Positions 49,610 to 64,000 of a DNA stretch of 64,000 bases are shown one piece after another. The notes below the pieces were generated by a model, which ran no database searches, was not told the origin of the DNA, and worked only from the letters and a program-made list of their open reading frames with translations. This DNA comes from a virus (lineage: Duplodnaviria; Caudoviricetes), in IMG/VR virus record IMGVR_UViG_3300048861_000178, positions 251,191 through 315,190 of that record, one strand, 5' to 3'. How positions within the stretch are numbered: position 1 is the first letter of the stretch; every line of letters starts with the position of its first letter. A program made the position numbers and the translations under genes.

Positions 49610-50368
49610 ATGGCAGGCGATTTCAAAGCAGCACCGCGCAAGAAGACTCCGCTCGACAACAAGAAGCTGCAGATGTCGGCGAAGAACCAGGAAGGCAAAT
49701 TCGCGTCGCTCCAGTGGGGGCTTTTCGCGAACAACCCGCGTATCACTGTTTACACGAATGTGGACAGCGACCGCGACACGAACTACGGCAAGATCAGCGC
49801 GAACATGGATACGCCTGCTTTCTACGGCTTCCTGAACCTGCTGCGTCAAGCGATCGACTTCATCCCCGGCACCGGCGGCAAGGACGAGTTCAAGAACTCG
49901 ATCGAGAACAAGAACTTCATCTTCCCCGGCGGCAAGCGCAGCGAAAAGCCGGTGGTGCAGTCCGAACTGTTCGTCGGCAAGGACAAGGACGGCGTGGTGT
50001 GGATGGGTGTGATGGCCAAGGACCGGCCGCGCATCAAGTTCAACTTCCAGCTCTCGGATTTCCATTTGCTCAAGCACGGCACGGGCGAGTACTACTCGGC
50101 GGCCGAAGCCTCGAAGGTCGCCGCTGAAGCGTACTGGAATCTGCTCACCGAGATGCTCGCGCACATGCAAGTGTCGCACTGGGAAGAACCGATTCCGAAG
50201 GAAGGCGGCCAGGGCGGTGGCTTCAATCGTGGCGGTGGCGGCGGTGGTGGTTACAACCGTGGTGGTGGTCAAGGCGGTGGCGGCGGGTATAACCGCGGCG
50301 GTGGCGGCGGCAACGATTCGGGCTTCGCAGGTGGTAGCGACGGCGCCGGAGACGACTTGCCCTTCTAA
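49610..50368 (+). CDS. chmC: ChmC-like nucleus-associated nucleic-acid-binding protein (phiKZ gp67-like)
   Basis: Directly upstream of the gp68-like gene; beta-rich domain plus Gly/RGG disordered tail. Confidence 0.65.
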   Translation: MAGDFKAAPRKKTPLDNKKLQMSAKNQEGKFASLQWGLFANNPRITVYTNVDSDRDTNYGKISANMDTPAFYGFLNLLRQAIDFIPGTGGKDEFKNSIENKNFIFPGGKRSEKPVVQSELFVGKDKDGVVWMGVMAKDRPRIKFNFQLSDFHLLKHGTGEYYSAAEASKVAAEAYWNLLTEMLAHMQVSHWEEPIPKEGGQGGGFNRGGGGGGGYNRGGGQGGGGGYNRGGGGGNDSGFAGGSDGAGDDLPF

Positions 50369-50488
50369 GCACCCGGCAGTAGCTTAGCTTAATGGATACA
50401 CTCCCTCAGACCGCGCTTGGGTAGGCGCGGTCTGATGGGGGTGATCCAGCCTTTTCCTAACACGACAGAATACCCGAGAATCCCTCGT

Positions 50489-50527
50489 GGATTCAAACTC
50501 GTTGAAAACCTATATTACTACACTGAG
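50489..50527 (+). promoter_or_regulatory. Early promoter, TATATTAC type
   Basis: GGATTCAAACTCGTTGAAAACCTATATTAC; implies the downstream gene starts at ATG 50571. Confidence 0.7.
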
Positions 50528-50570
50528 CAGTATCCAAAGAGTCGTTACAACGTTTATTACGCAGGAGAAA

Positions 50571-52139
50571 ATGATGCGTGTAGTCACCGATCGGGAAGGC
50601 CATCTGGGAGACCAGACGGTTGCGCTCCTCCGTCACCGTGATCAGGAACTGAAGTGGAATATCAAGCTGATTGATAAGGCGTCGATCAAGCCTGATGTGG
50701 ACATCTTCCACCAGATCAATGGCTTCTGGGACAAGCAACCGATGGATGCCCAGGACAAGATCTTCGAGGTGTACAAGCGCATTCACATCACCTTCGATGA
50801 AATCTGGGAAACCGAGGATCTGGCTCGGGCGCTGTTGCCCCAGATCGCTGAGCTGTGCGCGCTGCACAAGCTCGACGATGTGCGCTCGTGGATTGATTTC
50901 CACAGCGACATTGCCATGCCGCACAACCTCAACGAGGAATACGGCGACAGTCATAGCGCCATCGGCACGCGAGATCGTACCTATCTGCGCGAAGACTATA
51001 AGCAGCTCGTGGTACTGAGTGTCGTGCTGCGACCGATGCTGCTGGTGTGGGGCGAGTATGTGTTTCGCACCGAGAAGGAACACGGGACCAACTGGAAGGA
51101 GTACAAGGCGTTCCAGTTGCTCTCGCAGTCGTACATTCTGGCTGAAGGTCAGTGCCCGCCGATGGAACGGTTGCAGAAGTACGTGGAATTGAGCTTGCCG
51201 CAAACGAAGGAATTCGATTCGGCGATTCTCGACGGGATTTCCACGGAAGACTTTTCCACCTGGGTGCTGGCGCTGGTGGTGATTCGCCGTCTGACCATTG
51301 GCGACATCAGCGGCACCGATCCGGATTTCAATCTCGTGGCGTTTATCTACCGCTACGTGGGTCAGAAGGTCAAGGGCCATGACCACAGCTTCATGGGCAT
51401 GGTCAAACCCAAGATTCCGGAAAGCCAGTCGGGCGATAGTGAAAACAATCTCTCGAAGTTGGAAGGCTACAAGGTCAAGCAGGAAATTCCCGCAGGTGAC
51501 ATCGCAATCGTCGAGCACTACATCAGCGACACCACCAAACTGGCGTTGCGTGTGTGCCCGGAGCTTAAGGAGAACCTCGGGATTTTGTTGGAATCGTTGG
51601 ATGCGGTCAAACAACTGACCAACGAACACATCTGGGACCCGCAGTTGGCGTTGATCCAGTGGACGCTGGAAGACGCGGTGAGTCCCCGTGCATTTCCGTA
51701 TCTCTCGAAGAAATCCGTGCTGGAGGCCATGGGAGTGGCACAGGCTGTACTCTGGCAACGGGGTCACTTCGAGCTGGCTGGGCTGATGACAGCAGTGGCC
51801 CAGTCGAACGCACAGGAATTGCAGCTGACTGGTGTGATTCCCCAAGCCCGGATTCCGGCGAACATGGTGGAGGAGTTGAATAAGCTCTATCCGCATGCAC
51901 GACGGCAGTCTGGCAAGCAGAAGTCACAAAAGGAAAAGAATGTCGCTGTACTGGGCATCGACCACGTGACCAAGCAACTTCGCGAACATGAGTGGCGCTT
52001 AACCGTGCCCGCGGGATGGCTCGCGAAGGTCGTCCAAAACACCAATGATCGCCGGTACGCGGTGCCTTACGATATAAAGATCAAAATGGCAAAACTGGCG
52101 ATCGAAATCGCAACGAATCAAGCAAACAGGAGCGTTTGA
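50571..52139 (+). CDS. Non-virion RNAP fifth (sigma-like) subunit (phiKZ gp68-like)
   Basis: 522 aa, AGGAG RBS, position between chmC and picA; RTYLREDY..L motif. Confidence 0.7.
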   Translation: MMRVVTDREGHLGDQTVALLRHRDQELKWNIKLIDKASIKPDVDIFHQINGFWDKQPMDAQDKIFEVYKRIHITFDEIWETEDLARALLPQIAELCALHKLDDVRSWIDFHSDIAMPHNLNEEYGDSHSAIGTRDRTYLREDYKQLVVLSVVLRPMLLVWGEYVFRTEKEHGTNWKEYKAFQLLSQSYILAEGQCPPMERLQKYVELSLPQTKEFDSAILDGISTEDFSTWVLALVVIRRLTIGDISGTDPDFNLVAFIYRYVGQKVKGHDHSFMGMVKPKIPESQSGDSENNLSKLEGYKVKQEIPAGDIAIVEHYISDTTKLALRVCPELKENLGILLESLDAVKQLTNEHIWDPQLALIQWTLEDAVSPRAFPYLSKKSVLEAMGVAQAVLWQRGHFELAGLMTAVAQSNAQELQLTGVIPQARIPANMVEELNKLYPHARRQSGKQKSQKEKNVAVLGIDHVTKQLREHEWRLTVPAGWLAKVVQNTNDRRYAVPYDIKIKMAKLAIEIATNQANRSV

Positions 52140-52141
52140 AC

Positions 52142-53665
52142 ATGCTGAACAACTTCGTAGGTAACGGGATGGGTGACAAGTTTCGTGTGCGTCAGCTTGT
52201 CATGGTCGAGACCGGTGGTCACGGCCAACAGTACCGTCGACCGTACGAAACGGTCGTGACGCCGAACGTGGAACAGCTGGTGGCGGACCGGTTGGACCCG
52301 AAGCAACCGGCCACTCCGGCGTCCCTCGCCGGGGTTGCGAATCAGTTTATCCTGCCCTCGGCAGCGTGGGAAAAGGAAGTCGTGATCCCGAACGGTTGGG
52401 GAGAGCGGCGCTTGCGCTTCATGATGCTGTTGGACCACATCGGACCGGCAGGGGTCGAAATCACGCAGGTCATCACTGGCTACTCGGAGTATTTTGATCC
52501 GACTCTGCAGGGCAACATCGACCCGCACATGTTCTTCTACGTGAATTCCACCATGGCTTTGCGCCGGGTCACCGCCCGCACCGCCATCGGCAATCGCGAC
52601 TATTACAACGTCGCGGATGCGGCGCACGTGATCGTCGACAATGCGTGGGAGAACGTGCATCAGCCGAACAAGGAATTCCGCATGCGCCCTGCGGACGTGT
52701 ATTCGACCATGACCCGTATCCATCTCGGCCAAGAGACGAATGCGGACATGAACGACACACGCACCCTGGTCACGGGTCTGCCGCAAAAGTCGTGGCGACG
52801 CAATGCCAATACGACGGCTTACGCGTCGGCGCTGTTTGAAAACTATCAGACGGCGCTGAAGCTCGATGCGTTTGGTCAGTCGCACGACCAGATTCTCTCG
52901 CAAGCGCGCGGCCATTCGGTCGAACAGTCCGTGGCGCAAGATCCGTTCATGAACGCGATCAACAAGATCCGGGGCAGTCAGAACGGCAACTCCTTCACGA
53001 TCAACGATCTGTTGCGTCTGGACCCGCACGCGATGGACGATGACATCGCGCTGCTCTCGTATCAGGGCCAAGCCTCGCCGATCAACCCGATGGGCGGGCA
53101 ACACGGGGGCTTCTTCAACAACACCTCGAGTGAAGTGGGTTGGGGTGGTTCGAACCAGTACACGCAGGTGGCAACGATTATCGCGCATTCGATCCCGGCT
53201 ATCATGGTCGAGTCCGCGATCGCCAACATCATCGTGCACTGTACGAATCGCAATGAATTCCGTGAGCCGCAGATCATCATCTCCGGCATGCGGGACTTCC
53301 CGTCGATGGCAGGCACCACGATCGACATGACGCAGTTTATCGAGAAGTTCAAGTGGCGAGTGGCCAACGAAGTGCTGAACGATGTGTCGTACAGCAACAC
53401 GCTGGATTACGCGTTTAACCTGAAGCTCGATTTGCTGGGTGAGTCGATCCTGGAGATCTCCATGAATGGCGGGCCTTTCGATACCTTCACGCTGCCGAGC
53501 TTCTGCGATGCCCTGCTCGTGCCGATCGTGACCAACAACGATCAGCGCGCGCTCGCATTGGCGACGGACTTCAATAGCCTCTTTAATGCGGTGTTGAATT
53601 CCAACGACATCGCACCGGGTGCGTCGTACCATGGCACGGCCGGGGTGCAATTCGGTCAACTGTAA
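52142..53665 (+). CDS. picA: PicA/Imp1 nuclear protein-import factor (phiKZ gp69-like)
   Basis: About 507 aa following the gp68-like gene; QYRRPY, IPNGWGERRLRF, RPADV and PSFCDAL motifs; TTG 52136 is an alternative start. Confidence 0.72.
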   Translation: MLNNFVGNGMGDKFRVRQLVMVETGGHGQQYRRPYETVVTPNVEQLVADRLDPKQPATPASLAGVANQFILPSAAWEKEVVIPNGWGERRLRFMMLLDHIGPAGVEITQVITGYSEYFDPTLQGNIDPHMFFYVNSTMALRRVTARTAIGNRDYYNVADAAHVIVDNAWENVHQPNKEFRMRPADVYSTMTRIHLGQETNADMNDTRTLVTGLPQKSWRRNANTTAYASALFENYQTALKLDAFGQSHDQILSQARGHSVEQSVAQDPFMNAINKIRGSQNGNSFTINDLLRLDPHAMDDDIALLSYQGQASPINPMGGQHGGFFNNTSSEVGWGGSNQYTQVATIIAHSIPAIMVESAIANIIVHCTNRNEFREPQIIISGMRDFPSMAGTTIDMTQFIEKFKWRVANEVLNDVSYSNTLDYAFNLKLDLLGESILEISMNGGPFDTFTLPSFCDALLVPIVTNNDQRALALATDFNSLFNAVLNSNDIAPGASYHGTAGVQFGQL

Positions 53666-53703
53666 ACAAGGAACCCCCTAGGCAACTAGGGTAGGAGAGA
53701 AGA

Positions 53704-55056
53704 ATGAGTAAAATGTTGAAGTTCTACGAAGCCGTGCTGGATGCGGCAGGGTTGACCGTGACTGCCGACGGTTGCGTCTCGATCAAAACGAGCAAGGACA
53801 GCAAGCCCCTCACCATGAAGGGCAAGCGTCTGGTACTCCCCACACGGGAACACCAGGCCAATCCGAGCCCGGACACCAAGGTGTTGTTCCATCCGTTACA
53901 GGAAAACGTGATGCGGGGCGAATCGGAAGTATTCGAGCGCTTTCGCATGGCGATCAATGGTCGCATGAACGTGGTGTTCGGCACTATCGTGCATACGCTC
54001 CTGCAACTCGGCACCAGCCAAGCCGAGCAGCATAAGCTCAGCCCCGAGCAAAGCGAATTCCTCTCCAAGGTGAAGAATGCCGACGAGAAGACGCTCGCTG
54101 CGCTGAAGAAAATCATGGATAGCCTCAGTGCGACGCAGCACCAGAAGCTCTTCGTGTCGATCTTCATCAAACGGGGCGGCACGGTCGGCGACAAGCGCTA
54201 CGCGCGCGTCGGGGTGGCACACTTCCCGTTCTACAACGAACTGAAGAAGGGTGAAAGCGAACTGCATGGCGTGAAGCTGCGCGTGAAGGATCGTGAAGCC
54301 CTGATCGGCCTGCTGGACTACATCTTGCCCGAGCAAGACATCGCCGGGGTGTACAACCGTGGCTCGAATAGCACGATTGCGCCGTCCATCGAAGCGTTGT
54401 TGCTGACGGTGAAAGCGATTGCGGCACCGCTGAACGATCTGATCTCGCGCTTCGAAGGCATCCTGCCGGAGAATCTGCTCGTGAACGCGGATTGGGTCGA
54501 CCAGCTGGAAAACCTCGACGAACTGCTGCCGGAAATTCGTTCCACGCCGATGCAAGCGGGCAACGAAGGTACGGTGCCGGGTACGGAAGCCGAGAAGCAA
54601 CAGCAAATCGCGCAGACCCAGACGGCCTTCAATGCGCCTGCAGGTTCCTCGACGCACGGCGCAGCAGGTGTCACGCTGGCAGCTCAGCGTCCGGCTACTC
54701 CGCCGCCTGCTACGCCGGGTTGGCCTGCTGCGCAACCGTCGGTTCCGGCCTCCAGCAGTGCCCCGGTGCGCACCGCGACGGGTGGTACGGACTTCGAAGC
54801 GCTGGTGCGCTCCAAGCCCGCACTGCAACAAGCGGTGGGTTACGGCAGCTCGCATGGCTGGAATCCGGGTCAGGCTTGGCAACCGCAACCGCCGCAACGC
54901 GCGTCGCTCTCCAATCCGGTCGGCCCGGTCGGCAATCCCGGCTGGGGCGGTGGTAACCAGTGGGGCGGTCAGCCGCAGCAGCAATGGGGCCAGCAAGGCG
55001 GTAGCTGGAACCAAGGTGGCGGGGGCTGGAATCAGCAACCGGCAGTGCGCCTGTAA
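53704..55056 (+). CDS. Nucleus-associated protein (phiKZ gp70-like) with Q/G/W low-complexity tail
   Basis: 450 aa between picA and nvRNAP beta; FHPLQENVMRGES motif. Confidence 0.65.
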   Translation: MSKMLKFYEAVLDAAGLTVTADGCVSIKTSKDSKPLTMKGKRLVLPTREHQANPSPDTKVLFHPLQENVMRGESEVFERFRMAINGRMNVVFGTIVHTLLQLGTSQAEQHKLSPEQSEFLSKVKNADEKTLAALKKIMDSLSATQHQKLFVSIFIKRGGTVGDKRYARVGVAHFPFYNELKKGESELHGVKLRVKDREALIGLLDYILPEQDIAGVYNRGSNSTIAPSIEALLLTVKAIAAPLNDLISRFEGILPENLLVNADWVDQLENLDELLPEIRSTPMQAGNEGTVPGTEAEKQQQIAQTQTAFNAPAGSSTHGAAGVTLAAQRPATPPPATPGWPAAQPSVPASSSAPVRTATGGTDFEALVRSKPALQQAVGYGSSHGWNPGQAWQPQPPQRASLSNPVGPVGNPGWGGGNQWGGQPQQQWGQQGGSWNQGGGGWNQQPAVRL

Positions 55057-55074
55057 GTAGGTTGCGGCCCTTAA

Positions 55075-55128
55075 CGGCATAACAGCAGAGGGCTTCGGCC
55101 CTCTGCTGCTTACCGATCTTCTTTTTTT
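55075..55128. terminator. Bidirectional terminator: T run on plus, TATGCCG on minus
   Basis: CGGCATAAC then AGCAGAGGGC-TTCG-GCCCTCTGCT between convergent genes. Confidence 0.7.
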
Positions 55129-55159
55129 ATTCCAGGAGGTTATCTATAGCGACTCTGTC

Positions 55160-55498
55160 TCACTTTACGCCCGATTTGGCATTCCAGACCGAGCGCAGTG
55201 ACTCCACAGTGTTCGGGTCCGGCAGGTAGTACGACTGCAAATCCTGCGTCATTTGATCCGGCGAGGTATAGCCCGAGAGGCGCATCACCAACCAATGGAG
55301 CTGATGAGGCACATTTTGCTGCTGCATCAGGCCATAGAAGTCATACTCGTACCGTACTGCGAGATACCCATCAATCGGCACCGCCTTGGTTGAGGCGAGT
55401 GTTTTCAACAGGGAGAAGTGGTCTTCTAAGACCCGTCGAAAACCGGGATTGTAGTAGTCCAGGTTATCCAGCCCAATCGAATACTTGTTAATATCCAT
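55160..55498 (-). CDS. Small protein, possible LysM/T4 gp53-like baseplate wedge fold
   Basis: DFYGLM..LHWLVMRLSGYTSP..YYLPD pattern; ATG 55498. Confidence 0.5.
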   Translation of the reverse strand: MDINKYSIGLDNLDYYNPGFRRVLEDHFSLLKTLASTKAVPIDGYLAVRYEYDFYGLMQQQNVPHQLHWLVMRLSGYTSPDQMTQDLQSYYLPDPNTVESLRSVWNAKSGVK

Positions 55499-55503
55499 CG
55501 TAT

Positions 55504-55542
55504 TCCACCTAAATAAAGTCAAACATATATTACTAATACGAA
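55504..55542 (+). promoter_or_regulatory. Early promoter, TATATTAC type
   Basis: TAAAGTCAAACATATATTACTAA upstream of nvRNAP beta. Confidence 0.65.
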
Positions 55543-55639
55543 GAGCCTCAGATGATTTCTGCGAATGCATTGCAAGAGTGCATTAGTGGAAGTCAGACGG
55601 GGTAATAGCGTAGGTCGTTACAACAAGGAAAGGTACGAG

Positions 55640-57865
55640 ATGAACGTTCATTCAGCACGGAAGGTCTATGAACCGCTTCCGGAACCTAATCAGCTTCTGC
55701 GGCAGCTGCTGGGTGTGTGTGGGTTGAATCCGTGGAAAGGGGCCAACTCTGCTTCGCGGGAGCAGATGTTCTCCAGCCACATCGGTCAGACGCTGGTGGT
55801 GAAGGGAGCCACGCCACGTTACTGTCAGACCGGCATGGAACGTGAGTTCGGCAAGTATACCTGGAACGTGAAAATGCCCAAGACGGGCCAGGTGTTGAAA
55901 GTGATCGACCGGTATCGGACCAGCTACGGCGCGGATTCGATCATTCAGGACCAGTGGCAAAATCCGCAGCAAGTGGTGATTTTCAAAACCACCGAAGGCG
56001 GTAGCGAAATTGGCATGATCAACATGCCGCGCTTTTGCTCACAGCATCAGTATTTCGGTTTTCCGTTTGTGAGTCGTCCGGCGCGCAGTAAGCTCGTGCA
56101 AGGCGCGGAAATCCAAGAAGGCGAGGTGTTCTTGGATTCCCCGTCTGTGACTGCGGACGGCGACTACAAGTACGGTGTGCAGTGCAACGTGGCGTACATG
56201 TCCATTCCGGGTGTGGCTGAGGACGGCATCGTGATTTCGCGCGATGTACTCGATCGCTTCAGCTTCAAGACGTATGAAACCCGTGTGGTCGAGTGGGGCA
56301 GCAAGCGCTTTCCGTTGAACCTGTACGGCGACTATAAGAAGTATAAGTCGTTTCCGGACATCGGCGAGATGGTGCGCGAAGACGGGCTGCTGATGATGCT
56401 GCGCAGCTACGATGAAAGCCTGGCAGTGGTGGAGCAGTCGGCTGCGGCGTTGCGTCGTCCGGACTTTACGTTCGACAAGGCGACCTATGTGCCCACGGGC
56501 GGCAAGGTGGTGGATATTCGCGTGCATCACGATGCGAATAACCAGAACACCAACGTGCCTGAAGGCATGGATACGCAGCCCTCGCGCTATGATCGGGCAC
56601 GGCGCGAGTTCTATCAGGAAATCATCCAGCTGTATAACTCGCAGAAGTCAAAGTATGCGGATGGCAAGCCGCGCCTGTCGCCGGAGTTTCACCGGCTGGT
56701 GGTGGAAGCGCTTAGCGTGGTCGGCAAGAACAGTGCCAGTCCGAGCGAATCCATCAAGAAGCTCTATCGTCAGGCCCCGCTCGATGATTGGCGGGTGGAA
56801 TTCGTGATCGAGTATGAAATCACCCCGACCATCGGCTTTAAGCTGACGGACTGCTTCGGCGGCAAGGGTGTGATCTGCAAGATCTGCGAACCGCATGAAA
56901 TGCCGATCGACGAGCATGGCAATCGCGCGGACATCATCGTCTCGGGTGAGTCCACCGTGAACCGCATGAACTACGGTCGTCTGTATGAGCCCTACATCAA
57001 TGCGGCCTCGCGTGACGTGATGAAGCGCATCGTGGCAAAGCTCGGGGTGGATCGTACCGACCCGGAGTACATGCTCACGAAGAAGCTTGCGCAGATGGAA
57101 ATCGAACAGCCGCAGCTGATCGACGAAGTCTGGGAGTACCTGATGGGCTACTATGCCATCGTGAGCCCGTTGCAACATAGTTGGTTCATGACGGGCTCGT
57201 ACACGCGCCCACGGGTCGAGCACTTGGCCAGTGTGATCCACATCATCAAGCACCACGACGGCACGATCGAGAATGCAGATGGCTTGCAGCTCTTCATGCC
57301 ACCGGAAAACGACCCGGCGTATATCCCGATGGTGCGGGCGATCCAGGAGCAGTATCCGCCTGTGTATGGTCCGGTCGCTTATACCGGCAACTCAGGCAAG
57401 AAGGTGGTGACCAAGAAGCCAGTGCGCATTGCATCGGTCTACATCATCATCCTGGAAAAGATCGCCGATGACTGGACCGCGGTGTCCTCGGGTAAGCTCC
57501 AGCACTTTGGGGTGCTCTCGCAGGTCACCAATGCCGACAAGTACGCAGCGCCCACGCGTACGCAGGCGATTCGAGCTTGGGGCGAGGCGGAAGTCCGGAT
57601 TGCCGTGTCGTATGCAGGTGCACGCATCACGGCCGACATCCTGGATCGCAACAACAATCCGTTTACGCACAAGCATATCCTCGAGCAAATCTTGCGGGCC
57701 GACAAACCCACGGGCATCGAGAAGGTGGTCGATCGCAGCATCGTGCCACTGGGCGGTTCCAAGCCGCTCCAACTCGTACGGCACGTCGCGCAATGCGGCG
57801 GCTGGAAGTTCGTGTACGAGCAGGCCGAACAAGGTTACACGCCGCGCCAGAAACTGGCTGCTTAA
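55640..57865 (+). CDS. Non-virion RNAP beta C-terminal subunit (phiKZ gp71-73-like), uninterrupted
   Basis: AEDGIVIS, GFKLTDCFGGKGVI, RMNYGRLYE and WGEAE motifs. Confidence 0.92.
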   Translation: MNVHSARKVYEPLPEPNQLLRQLLGVCGLNPWKGANSASREQMFSSHIGQTLVVKGATPRYCQTGMEREFGKYTWNVKMPKTGQVLKVIDRYRTSYGADSIIQDQWQNPQQVVIFKTTEGGSEIGMINMPRFCSQHQYFGFPFVSRPARSKLVQGAEIQEGEVFLDSPSVTADGDYKYGVQCNVAYMSIPGVAEDGIVISRDVLDRFSFKTYETRVVEWGSKRFPLNLYGDYKKYKSFPDIGEMVREDGLLMMLRSYDESLAVVEQSAAALRRPDFTFDKATYVPTGGKVVDIRVHHDANNQNTNVPEGMDTQPSRYDRARREFYQEIIQLYNSQKSKYADGKPRLSPEFHRLVVEALSVVGKNSASPSESIKKLYRQAPLDDWRVEFVIEYEITPTIGFKLTDCFGGKGVICKICEPHEMPIDEHGNRADIIVSGESTVNRMNYGRLYEPYINAASRDVMKRIVAKLGVDRTDPEYMLTKKLAQMEIEQPQLIDEVWEYLMGYYAIVSPLQHSWFMTGSYTRPRVEHLASVIHIIKHHDGTIENADGLQLFMPPENDPAYIPMVRAIQEQYPPVYGPVAYTGNSGKKVVTKKPVRIASVYIIILEKIADDWTAVSSGKLQHFGVLSQVTNADKYAAPTRTQAIRAWGEAEVRIAVSYAGARITADILDRNNNPFTHKHILEQILRADKPTGIEKVVDRSIVPLGGSKPLQLVRHVAQCGGWKFVYEQAEQGYTPRQKLAA

Positions 57866-57894
57866 TTAACGGATCATGAAACAAGGAGGATGCC

Positions 57895-59925
57895 ATGATT
57901 AAGATCCGGGCCAGGAAGTTGCTCGCGATGACCACCGATGAACTGTGGGAGACGCTCACGGGGCGGTTCATCCTGATCTTCGACGACAACCGGGAGTTGG
58001 AAACCAACTGGCGCAAAACGGTAATCTCGTCGTATGCGTGGGAGTTTCATCGGCAGTGGGGCAAAACCCCGCTGCTCAAGCACCACCATATCGACGCGGT
58101 GTTGGGCAAGAAGCGCTACAGTGCGAGCACACCACTCGACCTGTTGGGCAACTGCATGTGGTCGGTCTATGAGATCTATGGCGATGCGGTCGGGCGCGAT
58201 GTGTTGGCACAGCGGATTTATCAGCTGAACAACATCATCTACAACGAGATGAGCTATCGGTGCGAAGCCGATGTGGGCTCGATGGACATCTTGGACTGGA
58301 TGGAAGTGCTCGATCATCCGAAGATCATTGCGATGAAGGAAAAGGTCAAGGACGCGGTCAACAAGACCCCGGACGAAGGCGGTCGCATGATCAAGGAAGC
58401 CTACGGTGTCATCGACGATGTGCTCGGCAATGGCCAAGACCTGCCCATGAATGCGGTGTCGCTGGCACTGCGCTCCAAGCTGGTCAACGCTAACCAGGTG
58501 CAGCAGTCGATTGGGCCGCGCGGCTATCTGACCGACATCGATTCGGACCAGTTCCGCTATCCGATCATCCCTGGCTATGTCGAAGGCATTCGCAGTCTGT
58601 ACGACTCGGTGATTGAGTCGCGCTCGGCAGCGAAGGCATTGCAGTTCTCGAAGTCGCCGTTGCAGGAAGCGGAGTATTTCTCCCGTCGCTTGCAGCTGAT
58701 GTGTCAGACGGTGCGTAACTTGCACCAGAACTGCGACTGTGGCACGACCGAAACCCTGCGCTGGCAAGTGCGGGGCAAGGAAGTGAACGAGGAAGGCGAT
58801 GAAGTCTTCGGCGGTGACCTGCCCCTGCTCGTCGGCAAGTTTTATATCGACGAGAAGACGGGTGGGCTGCGGGTGATTCGCGGCGACAAGCACGACCAAG
58901 AGCATCTGATCGGCAAGAGTATTCGGCTGCGCTCGGTGATTCACTGCGCGCATCCTGATCCGTATGGGGTGTGTGCCACCTGTTTCGGTGAACTCAGCCT
59001 GTCCGTACTGGACGATCGGACCAACTTGGGTCACATGTGTTGTACCTCGATGACGCAGAAGTCCTCGCAGTCGGTGCTGTCGGTGAAGCACTTGGATAGT
59101 TCGGCCGCGGTAGAACCGGCAAGCTTGACGCCTGAGGAGAAGAAGTTCTTCAAGATCAGTGCCGATGGCATGTCGTATCTGCTCGCCGATCGACTCAAGG
59201 GCAAGACGGTGAAGCTGGTCATTCCGGCGATGTTCGCTCCGAACATTACCGACGTGTTGGCCAACCACAGCATCGATGACCTCAATATCCGGCAAGTCTC
59301 GGAGATGCGGGAAATCGCAGTGCAGGTGAAAGAAGGCAATGTGGAGTTCGATCCGGAGCGTGTCAATACCTCCAAGGATCGGCGTCTTGCGTCGCTGACC
59401 TATCCGATGCTGCGCCATATCCGCAAGGTGCGCTGGGACTTCAATGCCAATAACGACTACGTCATTGACATGACTGGTTGGGATTGGAATGAGCCCGTGA
59501 TGACGCTGCCGCTGATTCACTTCAACATGAGCGATCACTCGAAAGATATCGCCTCGATGTTGGAGTCGAGTAAGAAGCAGATGGAAGCGCGGGATAAGGA
59601 CGTGTCACCCGACGCGTTCTTGGTCGAGCTGTACAACCTCGTGAACGATAAACTCACCGTGAATCTGGCGGTGCTGGAAGTCGTGCTGTACGGGGCGATG
59701 ATCATCAGCGCAGAAGAAGATGACTATCGTCTGCCGAAGCCGTGGACGGATCGCGGCTTGGGTGTGATGGACATGACCATGGATCGACGCTCGCTCTCGG
59801 CAACGATGGCGTACGAAGGCCACTACGATGTGTTCATCTCGCCGGAAAGCTACACGAAGAAGAACCGCCCGGATCACCCGATGGACGCATTGATTTGCCC
59901 CGTCGAAGTACTCGGGATGGGTTAA
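57895..59925 (+). CDS. Non-virion RNAP beta' C-terminal subunit (phiKZ gp74-like)
   Basis: QSIGPRG, bridge helix AEYFSRRL, DCGT, LRSVIHC..GVCATCFG, trigger loop SQSVLSVKH. Confidence 0.9.
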   Translation: MIKIRARKLLAMTTDELWETLTGRFILIFDDNRELETNWRKTVISSYAWEFHRQWGKTPLLKHHHIDAVLGKKRYSASTPLDLLGNCMWSVYEIYGDAVGRDVLAQRIYQLNNIIYNEMSYRCEADVGSMDILDWMEVLDHPKIIAMKEKVKDAVNKTPDEGGRMIKEAYGVIDDVLGNGQDLPMNAVSLALRSKLVNANQVQQSIGPRGYLTDIDSDQFRYPIIPGYVEGIRSLYDSVIESRSAAKALQFSKSPLQEAEYFSRRLQLMCQTVRNLHQNCDCGTTETLRWQVRGKEVNEEGDEVFGGDLPLLVGKFYIDEKTGGLRVIRGDKHDQEHLIGKSIRLRSVIHCAHPDPYGVCATCFGELSLSVLDDRTNLGHMCCTSMTQKSSQSVLSVKHLDSSAAVEPASLTPEEKKFFKISADGMSYLLADRLKGKTVKLVIPAMFAPNITDVLANHSIDDLNIRQVSEMREIAVQVKEGNVEFDPERVNTSKDRRLASLTYPMLRHIRKVRWDFNANNDYVIDMTGWDWNEPVMTLPLIHFNMSDHSKDIASMLESSKKQMEARDKDVSPDAFLVELYNLVNDKLTVNLAVLEVVLYGAMIISAEEDDYRLPKPWTDRGLGVMDMTMDRRSLSATMAYEGHYDVFISPESYTKKNRPDHPMDALICPVEVLGMG

Positions 59926-60009
59926 GCCAGACGCTCCGCTCACTTCGGTGGGCGGGGTAGCAGTACGGCAGTCTGTGTTCGAGATTCAAAACCAACCATA
60001 GGCTTTAAC

Positions 60010-61542
60010 ATGGCTGATCTTCATGTCGAAATCTTTTCGCACCATTTCGCGTGCACGCGGATGACTACGCGCGCCCGAGAGGCGCTGAACAAGTTCGCCG
60101 GGAGGTATGTCGAATACAAACTGGAGAAGATCCCTCGTAGCAACCGTTGGCACAAGGTCGCTGACCGGGTCTACGCGGCAGCCACCAAGGATCGCGAGGA
60201 GTACCGGTTCCACATTAACTTGTTGAAGCAGTTCAGGGACCATCTGGACTTCCACTACCTTCGCAATGAGTTGGTAGAATGGACGGTTGCGCCCTTTATC
60301 CAGTTGCCCGAAGTCGACATGCCGCTCAAAGATGGAATCACCCCGCGTGATTACCAGGAAGAGGCGATCGAGTACATCAACACGCCGGGCATCGTTAACA
60401 AACTGGTGGAGTTTCAAACGGGTAAGGGCAAGTCCGTCACGGCGATGTACGCGCAGTATAAGCGGCGTCGCATTGGGCTCCTGATGATCAAGCCGATGTA
60501 CATTGAGAAGTGGCTCATCGACTTGCGCAAGACCTTCGATCTGGAAGTCAGTGACGTGATTGTGGCGCAAGGCTCAGCCGAGCTGATGGCGCTCCTGGAG
60601 TTAGCCGCGCAGGAAGTCACGCCGAGCTACTACTGGATCATCGTGAGTAACGTCACGTTTGCCAATTGGCTTAAGCTCTACGAGGAAGTCGCCGCCGAAG
60701 TGCTCGAGACCGGTTACGCCTGTCTGCCACATCAGTTCTACGAGCACCTGAAGGTCGGCACTCGGATTATCGATGAGGTGCACCAGGACTTCCATCGTAA
60801 CTTTAAGATGGATTGCTACACCCACGTGGAGAATTCAGTCTCGCTGTCGGCCACCTTGATTTCGGATGACGACTTCAAGAACCAGATGTACGAGATTGCC
60901 TATCCGGGTCACCAGCGCCATAAGGGACCCGAGTACGACAAGTACATCGCGTGGCGGGCCGTGTTCTTTAGTTTTAAGAACCCGGAGAAGATCCGTTGTT
61001 CGGACTACGGCAGCAAGCGTTATTCGCACAACGTCTTCGAGCAGTTTATTCTGAAGAACGAGCAGACGACGACCAACTACTTCCAGTTGCTGAACACGAT
61101 CATTCGGTCCACCTACATTAAGGATCGCAAGCCAGGCGATAAGCTGATTATTTTCATGGCTTCGATCAACATGTGTACGGTGTTCACCAAGTGGTTGACA
61201 CGGGAATACCCGCAGCTGGAAGTGGGCCGCTACGTGGAAGAGGACCCGTACGAGATGCTGATGAATCCGGACATCCGGGTTACCACGCTCATGTCGGCGG
61301 GCACCGCAGTGGATATTCCTGGCTTAACGCATACGCTGTTGACTACCGCGGTAAAGTCCTCCCAATCGAACGTACAGGGCCTAGGACGGCTTCGTAAGCT
61401 CCCGGATGGGCGTACCCCTGTGTTCATCACGACGAACTGTCAGGACATCGACAAACACGTCGAGTACCACAATCACCGCAAGAACCTGATGGAACCGTTG
61501 TGCGTCTCGTACCGCAGCGATAACATCGGCATTCTCGTATAA
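60010..61542 (+). CDS. Superfamily 2 helicase (phiKZ gp75-like)
   Basis: RDYQ, TGKGKS, DEVH, SAT, QGLGRLR motifs. Confidence 0.9.
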   Translation: MADLHVEIFSHHFACTRMTTRAREALNKFAGRYVEYKLEKIPRSNRWHKVADRVYAAATKDREEYRFHINLLKQFRDHLDFHYLRNELVEWTVAPFIQLPEVDMPLKDGITPRDYQEEAIEYINTPGIVNKLVEFQTGKGKSVTAMYAQYKRRRIGLLMIKPMYIEKWLIDLRKTFDLEVSDVIVAQGSAELMALLELAAQEVTPSYYWIIVSNVTFANWLKLYEEVAAEVLETGYACLPHQFYEHLKVGTRIIDEVHQDFHRNFKMDCYTHVENSVSLSATLISDDDFKNQMYEIAYPGHQRHKGPEYDKYIAWRAVFFSFKNPEKIRCSDYGSKRYSHNVFEQFILKNEQTTTNYFQLLNTIIRSTYIKDRKPGDKLIIFMASINMCTVFTKWLTREYPQLEVGRYVEEDPYEMLMNPDIRVTTLMSAGTAVDIPGLTHTLLTTAVKSSQSNVQGLGRLRKLPDGRTPVFITTNCQDIDKHVEYHNHRKNLMEPLCVSYRSDNIGILV

Positions 61543-61615
61543 CTACAGGCAATCAGGGAAGAATGGGGCCAGGAGGAAACTCCTGGTCCTATGCCCCTAA
61601 AATCAAGGAACGGCT

Positions 61616-62023
61616 ATGGCGAACCTGCTGGAACATAAGCGCATCGCGGAAGCGAACCCGAACATCTTCATCGAGTTGCTCAAGCGTAAAGCCTCGAGCA
61701 ATCCCTTGCGCAAGAAGTTGAGTATGTTCTTGGAGTCGGTGGTCATCATGGCAGGGGGTGATAACCTGGTCAAGGATGTGCGTTCAGCCAACACCCTGAT
61801 TCCGGGTCACGCGAAGGTAGCGGGCAGCGCCACCCCGGTGTTTGGCTACCTGTGGGAGAGCGTCGCGTTTCAACCCCAGACCGAAGAACAACCCGTGACG
61901 TCGGTGTGCTTTCTGACGATCAACGAGCGCGGCATGTTCAACATGCTGTACGGTAATAACCCGGAGGCGCCCGCGAGCCTGCGCTTCGAAGACTTTGAAG
62001 AAGAAACCAAGGAGAAACAATGA
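61616..62023 (+). CDS. Hypothetical protein
   Basis: AAGGA RBS, 135 aa. Confidence 0.7.
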   Translation: MANLLEHKRIAEANPNIFIELLKRKASSNPLRKKLSMFLESVVIMAGGDNLVKDVRSANTLIPGHAKVAGSATPVFGYLWESVAFQPQTEEQPVTSVCFLTINERGMFNMLYGNNPEAPASLRFEDFEEETKEKQ

Positions 62024-62550
62024 TCCCGCAACGCCTCGACCAAATCGGCCACAACATCGGCCTGCTGCTCAATGGCTTCTTTGACTACACCTACAACGAG
62101 CACAAGGGTCCGATCCAGGTCCTGCATCAGATCGAGCGTGTACGCAGCAACAGCGCCTTTGAGTGCGATGACTTCTACCGCATGGTGGTCGAGTCGGATT
62201 TCCGGCAACGGGGTGGTTCGTTCAACCCGTTCGATCGCGCCCTCGAGATCGTGGAGGCCAATACCCGTGTCTGGAAGGGCACGGTGACGGGTCGTCAAAT
62301 CGAACTGGCGACCGTGCGTCGCTGGAATAAGGACGCGTTCACCTTGGGCGATCTGGTCTGGCTCGCCTACCTGTGCAACGAGCTGGGTCAGGACAACGGG
62401 ATCTTCCAAATGGAGCGCATTCTCGCCCATCAGCTCGAAGCCGATGACGGCGTGTTCTATCACGTCTCGGAGTTCACGCAAGGTAACGAATACCGCACGC
62501 TTCGCGAAACCTACGAAGAAGTGGCGCACCTTCTGAATGCTGTATCCTAA
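62020..62550 (+). CDS. Hypothetical protein
   Basis: AAGGAG RBS, ATGA overlap, 176 aa. Confidence 0.7.
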   Translation: MIPQRLDQIGHNIGLLLNGFFDYTYNEHKGPIQVLHQIERVRSNSAFECDDFYRMVVESDFRQRGGSFNPFDRALEIVEANTRVWKGTVTGRQIELATVRRWNKDAFTLGDLVWLAYLCNELGQDNGIFQMERILAHQLEADDGVFYHVSEFTQGNEYRTLRETYEEVAHLLNAVS

Positions 62551-62581
62551 CCCCCACCCCAGAGTAAAACAGGAGATTACA

Positions 62582-64000
62582 ATGTTTGGTAAAGAATCGC
62601 AGTATGGCACCTACGCATTGCGTGCTTTCGTGTTGCACACCGTCAACGGCGTGAAGCCGCAACAACGTCCTCAGCTCGTTTGCAATGCGACACCGGAGTC
62701 CATCGACCGTGTGAAGAAGTTCATGGATGAGCGCGATGGCACGCGTATCACCGCGCGCTCAGTCGCTCGTGAACTGGGTGGGTTGCTCAGCTACAGTAGC
62801 GAAATGTTGCCTGCCCGCCCGATCGCGGGTGGCTGGGAAGTCCAGCGACTTTCCTTCGTGTTGGCCGTCGACCGTGTCTCGCCCATCGGCGTGACGACCA
62901 CCTACAACATCGCAGGCTACACCAATCGCATGCCGGTGCAGCTCGCCGATCGGATTGATTGGACGGACGTGATCTTCTACGTGAATTCGTGTCTGATGGA
63001 ACATGCGTCAGTCACGAAGACTGTGGAGGGCGAGCGCGTGCATCGTGCTCTGAACCGGGCTGAACATCTGTTCTTTGATGCCGAGTTCGCTCCACCGGGC
63101 GACATGACGAAGCGCGCGACACGCGTGAGTCCGGCAGATGTGGCTGCCAACTTCTCTGCCTTCGACTTTGCTGACACGGAGGATGTGGTCGATACGCGCA
63201 CGATGATCACTAGCTCGCCACGCCTTGCGTATCGTCGTCACGTCGTGCCAGCGCGTTTTCTGGCCGAATTGATGCAGTGCTGCTTTAAGGTACGCGCCCA
63301 GGGCGAGGACATGGTGCCCGACGAAATGCTCAAAGACGATCTCGTCTTCAACACCATGCGCGCTCATCTGGAACCCGCCGCGCTGTTAGCCAATCCGTTC
63401 TTCCGCACGCTCGCGCAGGTGCAAGGCTCGCCTTTCGCGGGTCGCTTCACCATGGAAGATCTGCAACGGGTGCTGCCTGCGGTGGTGGAAAAGGCAGTCG
63501 TGGCCTTCGAAGACTACACGGGTCCTGAAGAGGATAGTCCGGTCAGCGAGCGGCCGAATCAGGCCCTTGTCTATCTAGGTCAAACCATCCCGGCGCTGTT
63601 TCACTCGATGGGGTTCACCATAGCACAGTTCCAGGTTGACATCCCGTACCACGATCAAGAAGATCCGACCAACTTCACGTTCGTCAATACGCGCGGCTTT
63701 GCAGGCACCATGGATACGGAAAAACGCATCCAGCACGTGCAAGGCATTATGGAGCGTGAAATCTTCCCGGAGCTGCGCCGCATGGGCTTGGAAGGTGGTA
63801 GCCTCTTCTTTAACGTGGAAGTGTTCGGCAACACCTCGATCCAGTACAACCTGCTTTTCGGGTCGAGCTATCAGGGTAAGCGGCACTTTGCTTCATATGC
63901 CGATGCGCTCACCTCGCCGCTGGTAGCGGAATCGCGCCCGAGCAGTCTGGCGCTTTCCGCTGATCTGTACGCGGTGCTCAATGCCGCGGTGGACGCCACC
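62582..64000 (+). CDS. Second PicA/Imp1-like paralog, open at the window end (at least 473 aa, absent from the ORF track)
   Basis: Hand translation from ATG 62582 (AGGAG RBS) has no stop; collinear motif matches to 52142-53665 over the whole length. Confidence 0.75.
   Translation, partial: MFGKESQYGTYALRAFVLHTVNGVKPQQRPQLVCNATPESIDRVKKFMDERDGTRITARSVARELGGLLSYSSEMLPARPIAGGWEVQRLSFVLAVDRVSPIGVTTTYNIAGYTNRMPVQLADRIDWTDVIFYVNSCLMEHASVTKTVEGERVHRALNRAEHLFFDAEFAPPGDMTKRATRVSPADVAANFSAFDFADTEDVVDTRTMITSSPRLAYRRHVVPARFLAELMQCCFKVRAQGEDMVPDEMLKDDLVFNTMRAHLEPAALLANPFFRTLAQVQGSPFAGRFTMEDLQRVLPAVVEKAVVAFEDYTGPEEDSPVSERPNQALVYLGQTIPALFHSMGFTIAQFQVDIPYHDQEDPTNFTFVNTRGFAGTMDTEKRIQHVQGIMEREIFPELRRMGLEGGSLFFNVEVFGNTSIQYNLLFGSSYQGKRHFASYADALTSPLVAESRPSSLALSADLYAVLNAAVDAT

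Follow-up and report, generated by a model that had tools for sequence, protein, structure and literature searches.

The locus described here raises the question of whether a phage genome can carry two genes of the PicA/Imp1 family and, if so, what the second one does. PicA/Imp1 (phiKZ gp69) is an essential shell-associated factor that licenses cargo import via distinct surface patches and binds its partner Imp6 (PMC11087766; 10.1101/2024.03.27.586873). We analyzed a window of 64,000 nucleotides, the final 64 kb of a 315,190-bp IMG/VR record with a completeness rating of 98%, in which a sequence-only reading had placed a divergent gene of this family about 9 kb downstream of the canonical one. 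We refer to the frame at 52142-53665 as copy A and to that at 62582-64000 and onward on the plus strand as copy B; the gap between them, from 53665 to 62582, is 8.9 kb, in line with that estimate. The following features of the window are used throughout.

49610-50368, plus strand: Imp6/ChmC (phiKZ gp67) homolog, 34% identical to KTN4_089 (E 9e-26); PHROG 3284
50487-52139, plus strand: nvRNAP gp68-like subunit, adjoining copy A on its 5′ side; PHROG 3209 (E 1e-107), position of KTN4_090
52142-53665, plus strand: copy A, canonical PicA/Imp1 of 507 aa and, by synteny, the phiKZ gp69 ortholog; PHROG 3141 (E 4e-84), 72% identical to FLC9 gp373
53704-55056, plus strand: gp70-like gene, adjoining copy A on its 3′ side; PHROG 3520 (E 2e-73), position of KTN4_092
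55565-57865 and 57895-59925, plus strand: two non-virion RNA polymerase beta-type subunits; PHROG 3295 (E 3e-227) and PHROG 3015 (E 3e-184)
60010-61542, plus strand: helicase-like gene between copies A and B; PHROG 16 (E 1e-31), with a weak DEAD match below the Pfam cut-off
61400-64000, no strand: divergence island, in which sliding nucleotide identity with sister phage L005 drops from ~97% to 80-85% across orf176 and copy B and is ~97% again beyond
61616-62550, plus strand: orf135 and orf176 (135 and 176 aa, ends overlapping by 4 nt), adjoining copy B on its 5′ side; no PHROG or Pfam match
62571-62575, plus strand: Shine-Dalgarno-like AGGAG, 6 nt 5′ of the copy B ATG, read from the sequence
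62582-64000, plus strand: copy B, second PicA/Imp1-family gene, 473 codons in the window; identified by its ORF, PHROG 3141, BLASTP, an AF2 model and dN/dS

The gene order in the window runs from the Imp6/gp67 homolog through the gp68-like gene, copy A and the gp70-like gene to the two nvRNAP beta-type genes. In the phiKZ-like phage KTN4, the counterpart of copy A (KTN4_091) lies between nvRNAP gp68 and gp70, which is the gp69 position. Judged by this synteny and by its neighbors, copy A is the true ortholog of phiKZ gp69, as the sequence-only reading had taken it to be, and its PHROG 3141 match agrees. Used as a query, copy A matched 152 records of cultured chimalliviruses, at a single place in every one.

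As read directly from the sequence, the frame of copy B is open from its ATG at 62582 up to the end of the window. The final 305 nt of the record match its initial 305 nt at 98% identity, forming a circular overlap, and the remainder of copy B is found at the record start (G000:C1:306-353, the same as L002:306-353), where 15 further codons encoding the residues THNDEESDPFVIGEKP are followed by a stop. Because the frame carries on across the terminal overlap to this stop, the gene is whole, at about 488 aa; copy B is thus an intact ORF preceded by AGGAG rather than a truncated one. The copy B frame is also unbroken in at least nine independent assemblies, and in one of its relatives, a complete 313-kb genome with terminal repeats (G001), the copy B ortholog is internal to the record. 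A profile count across the 315-kb genome found exactly two PHROG 3141-type copies, A and B. The two record ends (63696-64000 versus L002:1-305) mismatch at 7 of 305 bases, with two residue changes in copy B (S to A and Q to R), which suggests either two strains in the sample or microdiversity at the copy B locus. Among sequencing runs, the stretch is present in one soil metagenome, which is probably its source, rhizosphere runs contain less than one tenth of its words, and no RNA dataset containing it is listed.

Copy B is recognizable as a paralog of copy A by both alignment and profile. BLASTP aligned the two collinearly in one stretch over 420 columns, at 23% identity (94 bits, E 6e-25); this alignment extends from about residue 80 to the C-terminus and includes all the motif pairs from which the sequence-only reading had argued for collinearity. 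In the PHROG search, both copies matched PHROG 3141 alone and along nearly its entire length, copy B with an E value of 7e-25 and with residues 13-467 lying on profile positions 6-484 of 510, and phmmer with copy B as the query found 332 family representatives. A Pfam search assigned no family to A, B, orf135, orf176, Imp6 or a 125-aa gene that follows copy B in sister phages. An AF2 model of copy B, built with 12 orthologs as input, was confident (pLDDT 82.5, pTM 0.84). Foldseek aligned this model with 15 full-length BFVD viral models (TM 0.72-0.85, E 1e-21 to 1e-32), nearly all from cultured chimalliviruses (RSF1, Yaphecito, Eowyn, MadMel, Miami and Aeromonas D3); the TM scores against canonical PicA models were 0.78-0.85, and nothing else of note matched in BFVD. 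Searches of the PDB with the sequence and with Foldseek found no relative. Copy B retains every one of the 19 family-wide columns that reach at least 80% conservation in both groups, including the residues GW..R..F, G.T, F..N, RP.D, D.R and D.L..P. Copy B is therefore predicted to retain the whole PicA fold and the invariant core of the family. It resembles PicA/Imp1 (phiKZ gp69, PhiPA3 gp63, 201phi2-1 gp125; PHROG 3141) in family, predicted fold and approximate length, and its phage is likewise a chimallivirus with ChmA-type neighbors (Imp6 and nvRNAP).

Copy B differs from canonical PicA/Imp1 in where it lies. Whereas copy A is flanked by Imp6, gp68 and gp70, copy B lies outside the gp68/gp70 locus, behind the helicase-like gene and two orphan ORFs, among small orphan genes and a common terminator. 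Metagenomic orthologs of copy B are 85, 80, 69, 65 and 44% identical to it, and three more distant proteins (P0011, P0012 and P0014; 26-28% identical) occupy exactly the same genomic slot. In L005, L010, L011, L012 and G001/G002, this slot follows the helicase-like gene and small ORFs, and beyond it come a 67-aa gene on the minus strand and a pair of macrodomain genes. The locus also includes the canonical copy, upstream, in L011 and L012, whereas the short L010 does not reach that far.

The closest cultured phage, Burkholderia phage FLC9, whose gp373 is the 72% identical counterpart of copy A, carries no copy B. An HMM scan of FLC9 gave a single PHROG 3141 match even at E≤0.1, and at the copy B slot the hairpin terminator that trails copy B in L011 and in the present record comes immediately after the stop of gp365. 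By this comparison, FLC9 lacks copy B through a clean deletion or indel that kept the common terminator. Since a tree of the gp70-like protein places FLC9 as sister to the copy B-carrying L011 phage (89/100), loss in FLC9 is the simplest reading. Unlike canonical PicA/Imp1, copy B is thus neither single-copy nor core: its clean absence marks it as an accessory gene that is not needed for import as such. FLC9 gp365 (208 aa), which sits at the slot, was considered as a remnant of copy B and rejected, being unrelated both to copy B and to the 125-aa gene.

The neighbors of copy B show several features of their own. The two small genes on its 5′ side are conserved in L005, L011, L012 and FLC9, and orf176 falls within the divergence island; neither orf135 nor orf176, when considered as a second Imp6, proved to be an Imp6 paralog. 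On the 3′ side, sister phages carry the 125-aa gene (L005:11458-11835), which overlaps the end of copy B and has no family match. In the separate assemblies G001 (L022) and G002, it is fused in frame to copy B as a 627-aa open frame, and in the present record (L002:350-418) an internal in-frame deletion has reduced it to a 22-codon remnant, VTEVETKASAYLHELFYRGVSD. A hairpin with a T-run, identified by eye as a terminator, separates copy B (or FLC9 gp365) from the 67-aa gene that converges on it (L002:421-480, L009:26258-26320 and L011:11520-11585); its stem sequences vary among phages while their pairing is conserved (GCGCGCTCCC/GGGAGCGCGC, GCGAGGACC/GGTCCTCGC and CCCAGGTC/GACCTGGG). Promoter and terminator scans found nothing that exceeded chance. 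Two tandem macrodomain genes of 161 and 150 aa (L002:730-1657, minus strand; Pfam Macro E 3e-5 and 1.5e-11) converge on copy B. One macrodomain protein of phiKZ, gp104, has been studied as a cargo of PicA (PMC11087766). Given that FLC9 has the macrodomain pair without copy B, the adjacency of these genes to copy B may be coincidence.

Pairwise dN/dS values for copy B of 0.18, 0.16 and 0.28 (against L005, L017 and L008, respectively), with a maximum of 0.61 in 40-codon windows, indicate that the gene is under purifying selection. Constraint is tight over the first 80 and the last 160 residues, and variability is highest at residues 100-280. The region of phiKZ Imp1 in which cargo-specific escape mutations lie (I226-E310) aligns to copy B residues 202-279 and so overlaps this variable stretch. 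Paired identities indicate that copy B diverges several-fold faster than the canonical copy: A versus B identity is 98.9 versus 80% with sister phage L005 (A over the 360 residues present in L005), 97.6 versus 84.7% with G001, 64 versus 26% with L011 and 73 versus 28% with L012. In another lineage, canonical and second copies of two other IMG/VR genomes (G003 against G004) are 58 versus 31% identical. The dS against L005 is 0.62-0.77 inside the divergence island (0.77 for orf176) versus 0.09-0.21 in the flanking core genes, which points to recombinational import of a diverged allele and not only to faster substitution. These nucleotide comparisons indicate that whole copy B alleles are exchanged by recombination.

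Several positions set canonical copies apart from second copies. Conserved in the canonical group and absent from second copies are the residues equivalent to T24, G25, P72, P128, W334, T341 and L347 of copy A. T341 of copy A corresponds to phiKZ T367, and import is delayed in a phiKZ Imp1 T367P mutant. The canonical copies, as observed in 34 sequences and not as a published criterion, also end in a low-complexity C-terminal tail of 20-50 aa that is rich in G, S, N and Q and has a hydrophobic terminus. Most second copies have no such tail and stop right after the final helix. The tail of copy B is short (15 aa), acidic and contains DPFVI, and close orthologs end in DPFVI, DSFTI or DPFAI. Should the canonical tail serve to anchor the protein at the shell or on its partners, copy B may sit outside the same machine.

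Copy B is not the only second copy among chimalliviruses. Two other IMG/VR genomes, both rated 100% complete (G003, 285 kb; G004, 324 kb), carry a canonical copy and a second one, separated by 144 and 162 kb, respectively, and these second copies are 23-26% identical to copy B. On a 277-kb JGI contig, the canonical copy, located via the Imp6 protein of the contig, has 512 aa and lies at the Imp6 locus, and a second copy (P0021) lies 31 kb away. Among seven near-complete IMG/VR records found via Imp6, two have two copies and five have one. IMG/VR scans with the single proteins P0021, P0015 and P0014 and with the A4 alignment found no contig. Like copy B, the second copies of uncultured chimalliviruses (the P0011-P0036 group and those of G003, G004 and the JGI contig) are additional to a canonical copy, fast-evolving and mostly without the canonical tail; those of G003, G004 and the JGI contig differ from it in occupying other slots, at distances of 31 to 162 kb from the canonical gene. 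In a further lineage, second PicA-like copies (L013:3100-3965 and L014:1821-2772) are located 6-8 kb 3′ of a DHFR and BubE pair, in long runs of small orphan genes. In a 218-kb record (IMGVR_UViG_3300002038_000006; G020:C1:75186-76554), the canonical PicA is split over two adjacent frames that cover profile positions 3-161 and 171-493, which could reflect a frameshift, an intron or an assembly error.

No second copy was found in cultured phage records, where four queries each matched one place per record (152/152, 12/12, 129/129 and 92/92). In the founding papers, PicA/Imp1 is a core gene, conserved and essential, and no paralog of it comes up (PMC11087766; 10.1101/2024.03.27.586873); among the papers searched, those that join Imp1 or PicA with the word 'paralog' apply it to other gene families. 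The single-copy status given to PicA/Imp1 in the sequence-only reading agrees with how the family is treated and with cultured records; across phages more widely, second copies proved to be fairly common in uncultured genomes, and we found no paper that describes them.

Trees were used to ask how many duplications gave rise to these copies. In a FastTree tree of 156 family members, copy B fell into a cluster with 24 further proteins that excluded A, FLC9 and phiKZ; three of the 24, when looked up, lay amid small genes, away from any nvRNAP block. In mixture-model trees, a branch with SH-aLRT values of 91 (61 rows) and 97 (34 rows) had every second copy on the same side; these were quick IQ-TREE runs with long branches, and the slots of the copies differ between lineages. 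An AU test did not reject joining the A and B clades of this lineage with each other (p 0.37). One ancient duplication and several lineage-specific ones are both compatible with these results. We consider it possible, but would not bet on it, that the second copies form one ancient importer paralog lineage that is widespread among uncultured Chimalliviridae and that every cultured model phage has lost, which would give a separate, rapidly diversifying nuclear entry route for accessory cargo such as anti-defence proteins.

The sequence-only reading, right in its core claim of a divergent family member beside the canonical one, had offered three functions for it: an importer with different cargo specificity, part of a heteromeric gate, or a decoy or anti-competitor. 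Of the explanations considered for copy B, the one we favor, with a probability of roughly one half, is that it is a functional accessory PicA/Imp1 paralog, which we infer to serve at the nuclear shell as an additional selector of cargo. The retained fold, purifying selection, dispensability and variable middle fit best with a second selector that takes different cargo. Core cargo would be left to essential copy A, with its Imp6 and nvRNAP neighbors, and the surfaces of copy B would be free to track variable accessory cargo, for example anti-defence proteins, so that copy B could change its specificity without risk to essential import. Counted against a selector role are the missing canonical-only positions in second copies, the counterpart of phiKZ T367 among them, the differing tail, and the loss in FLC9. 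A complex prediction for copy B with residues 1-200 of the Imp6 homolog (49610-50368), run without controls, scored 0.00 and gave no answer, which weighs neither for nor against binding. Among known systems, phiKZ Imp2, Imp4 and Imp5 are likewise lineage-restricted accessory contributors to import specificity; the analogy is functional only, and they are described as small adaptor-like proteins, not as Imp1 paralogs (10.1101/2024.03.27.586873).

That copy B is a decaying duplicate or an artefact of a contig end can be set aside with near certainty: it does overrun a record whose ends disagree at 7 of 305 bases, but the unbroken frame in the independent assemblies, its internal position in the complete terminal-repeat genome, the dN/dS range of 0.16-0.28 and the confident model (pLDDT 82.5) refute this explanation. 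More can be said for copy B as a decoy or anti-competitor that disrupts the import of co-infecting chimalliviruses, or bars their proteins or those of the host, instead of importing cargo of its own. An island of 2.6 kb that diverges fast and swaps alleles, in genomes that are 97% identical elsewhere, resembles conflict-driven loci, copy B is dispensable in FLC9, second copies are without the canonical tail and several canonical-only positions, and a heterologous Imp1, that of PhiPA3, has an effect on phiKZ and selects for dominant mutations in imp1 (10.1101/2024.03.27.586873). We nevertheless think a decoy unlikely, as no 40-codon window of copy B has a dN/dS above 1, the complete fold and core would be superfluous in a protein that simply blocks, and the raised dS points to recombination, not adaptive point substitution, as the source of the island.

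A new, non-import function that reuses the PicA fold, such as another shell-associated role, strikes us as distinctly unlikely. The mere 23% identity to copy A, the lost canonical-only positions and the unlike tail would all suit it, and because the fold has no known biochemical activity or PDB relative, it does not fix the function of copy B. Against this, copy B keeps all family-wide conserved positions and the full architecture, and its most variable part coincides with the region of cargo-specific Imp1 mutations. Paralogs frequently hetero-oligomerise, and in this lineage genes A and B lie on the same strand, less than 10 kb apart, in the nvRNAP block, so a heteromeric partner or regulator that is complexed with copy A at the shell and tunes or gates import was also weighed. 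We hold this to be improbable: the two copies lie 31 to 162 kb apart in three other lineages, an obligate partner would be expected to match the rate of A when copy B is several times faster, FLC9 works without copy B, and the behavior of phiKZ Imp1 is that of a single Imp1 with two Imp6 rather than of an oligomer (10.1101/2024.03.27.586873).

No specificity factor other than PicA/Imp1 is known for the entry of proteins into the phage nucleus, and a duplicated, dispensable and hypervariable copy of it is a natural experiment on how import specificity is encoded and evolves. A comparison of A and B cargo, or swaps of B alleles between 97% identical phages, would map specificity determinants and leave the essential gene untouched. 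The carrier of copy B is an uncultured soil jumbo phage, and related uncultured phages retain the gene; cultured model phages under-represent the import machinery of soil chimalliviruses. If second copies do form a separate importer lineage, nuclear import in chimalliviruses would be modular, in a manner comparable to the importin paralogs of eukaryotes.
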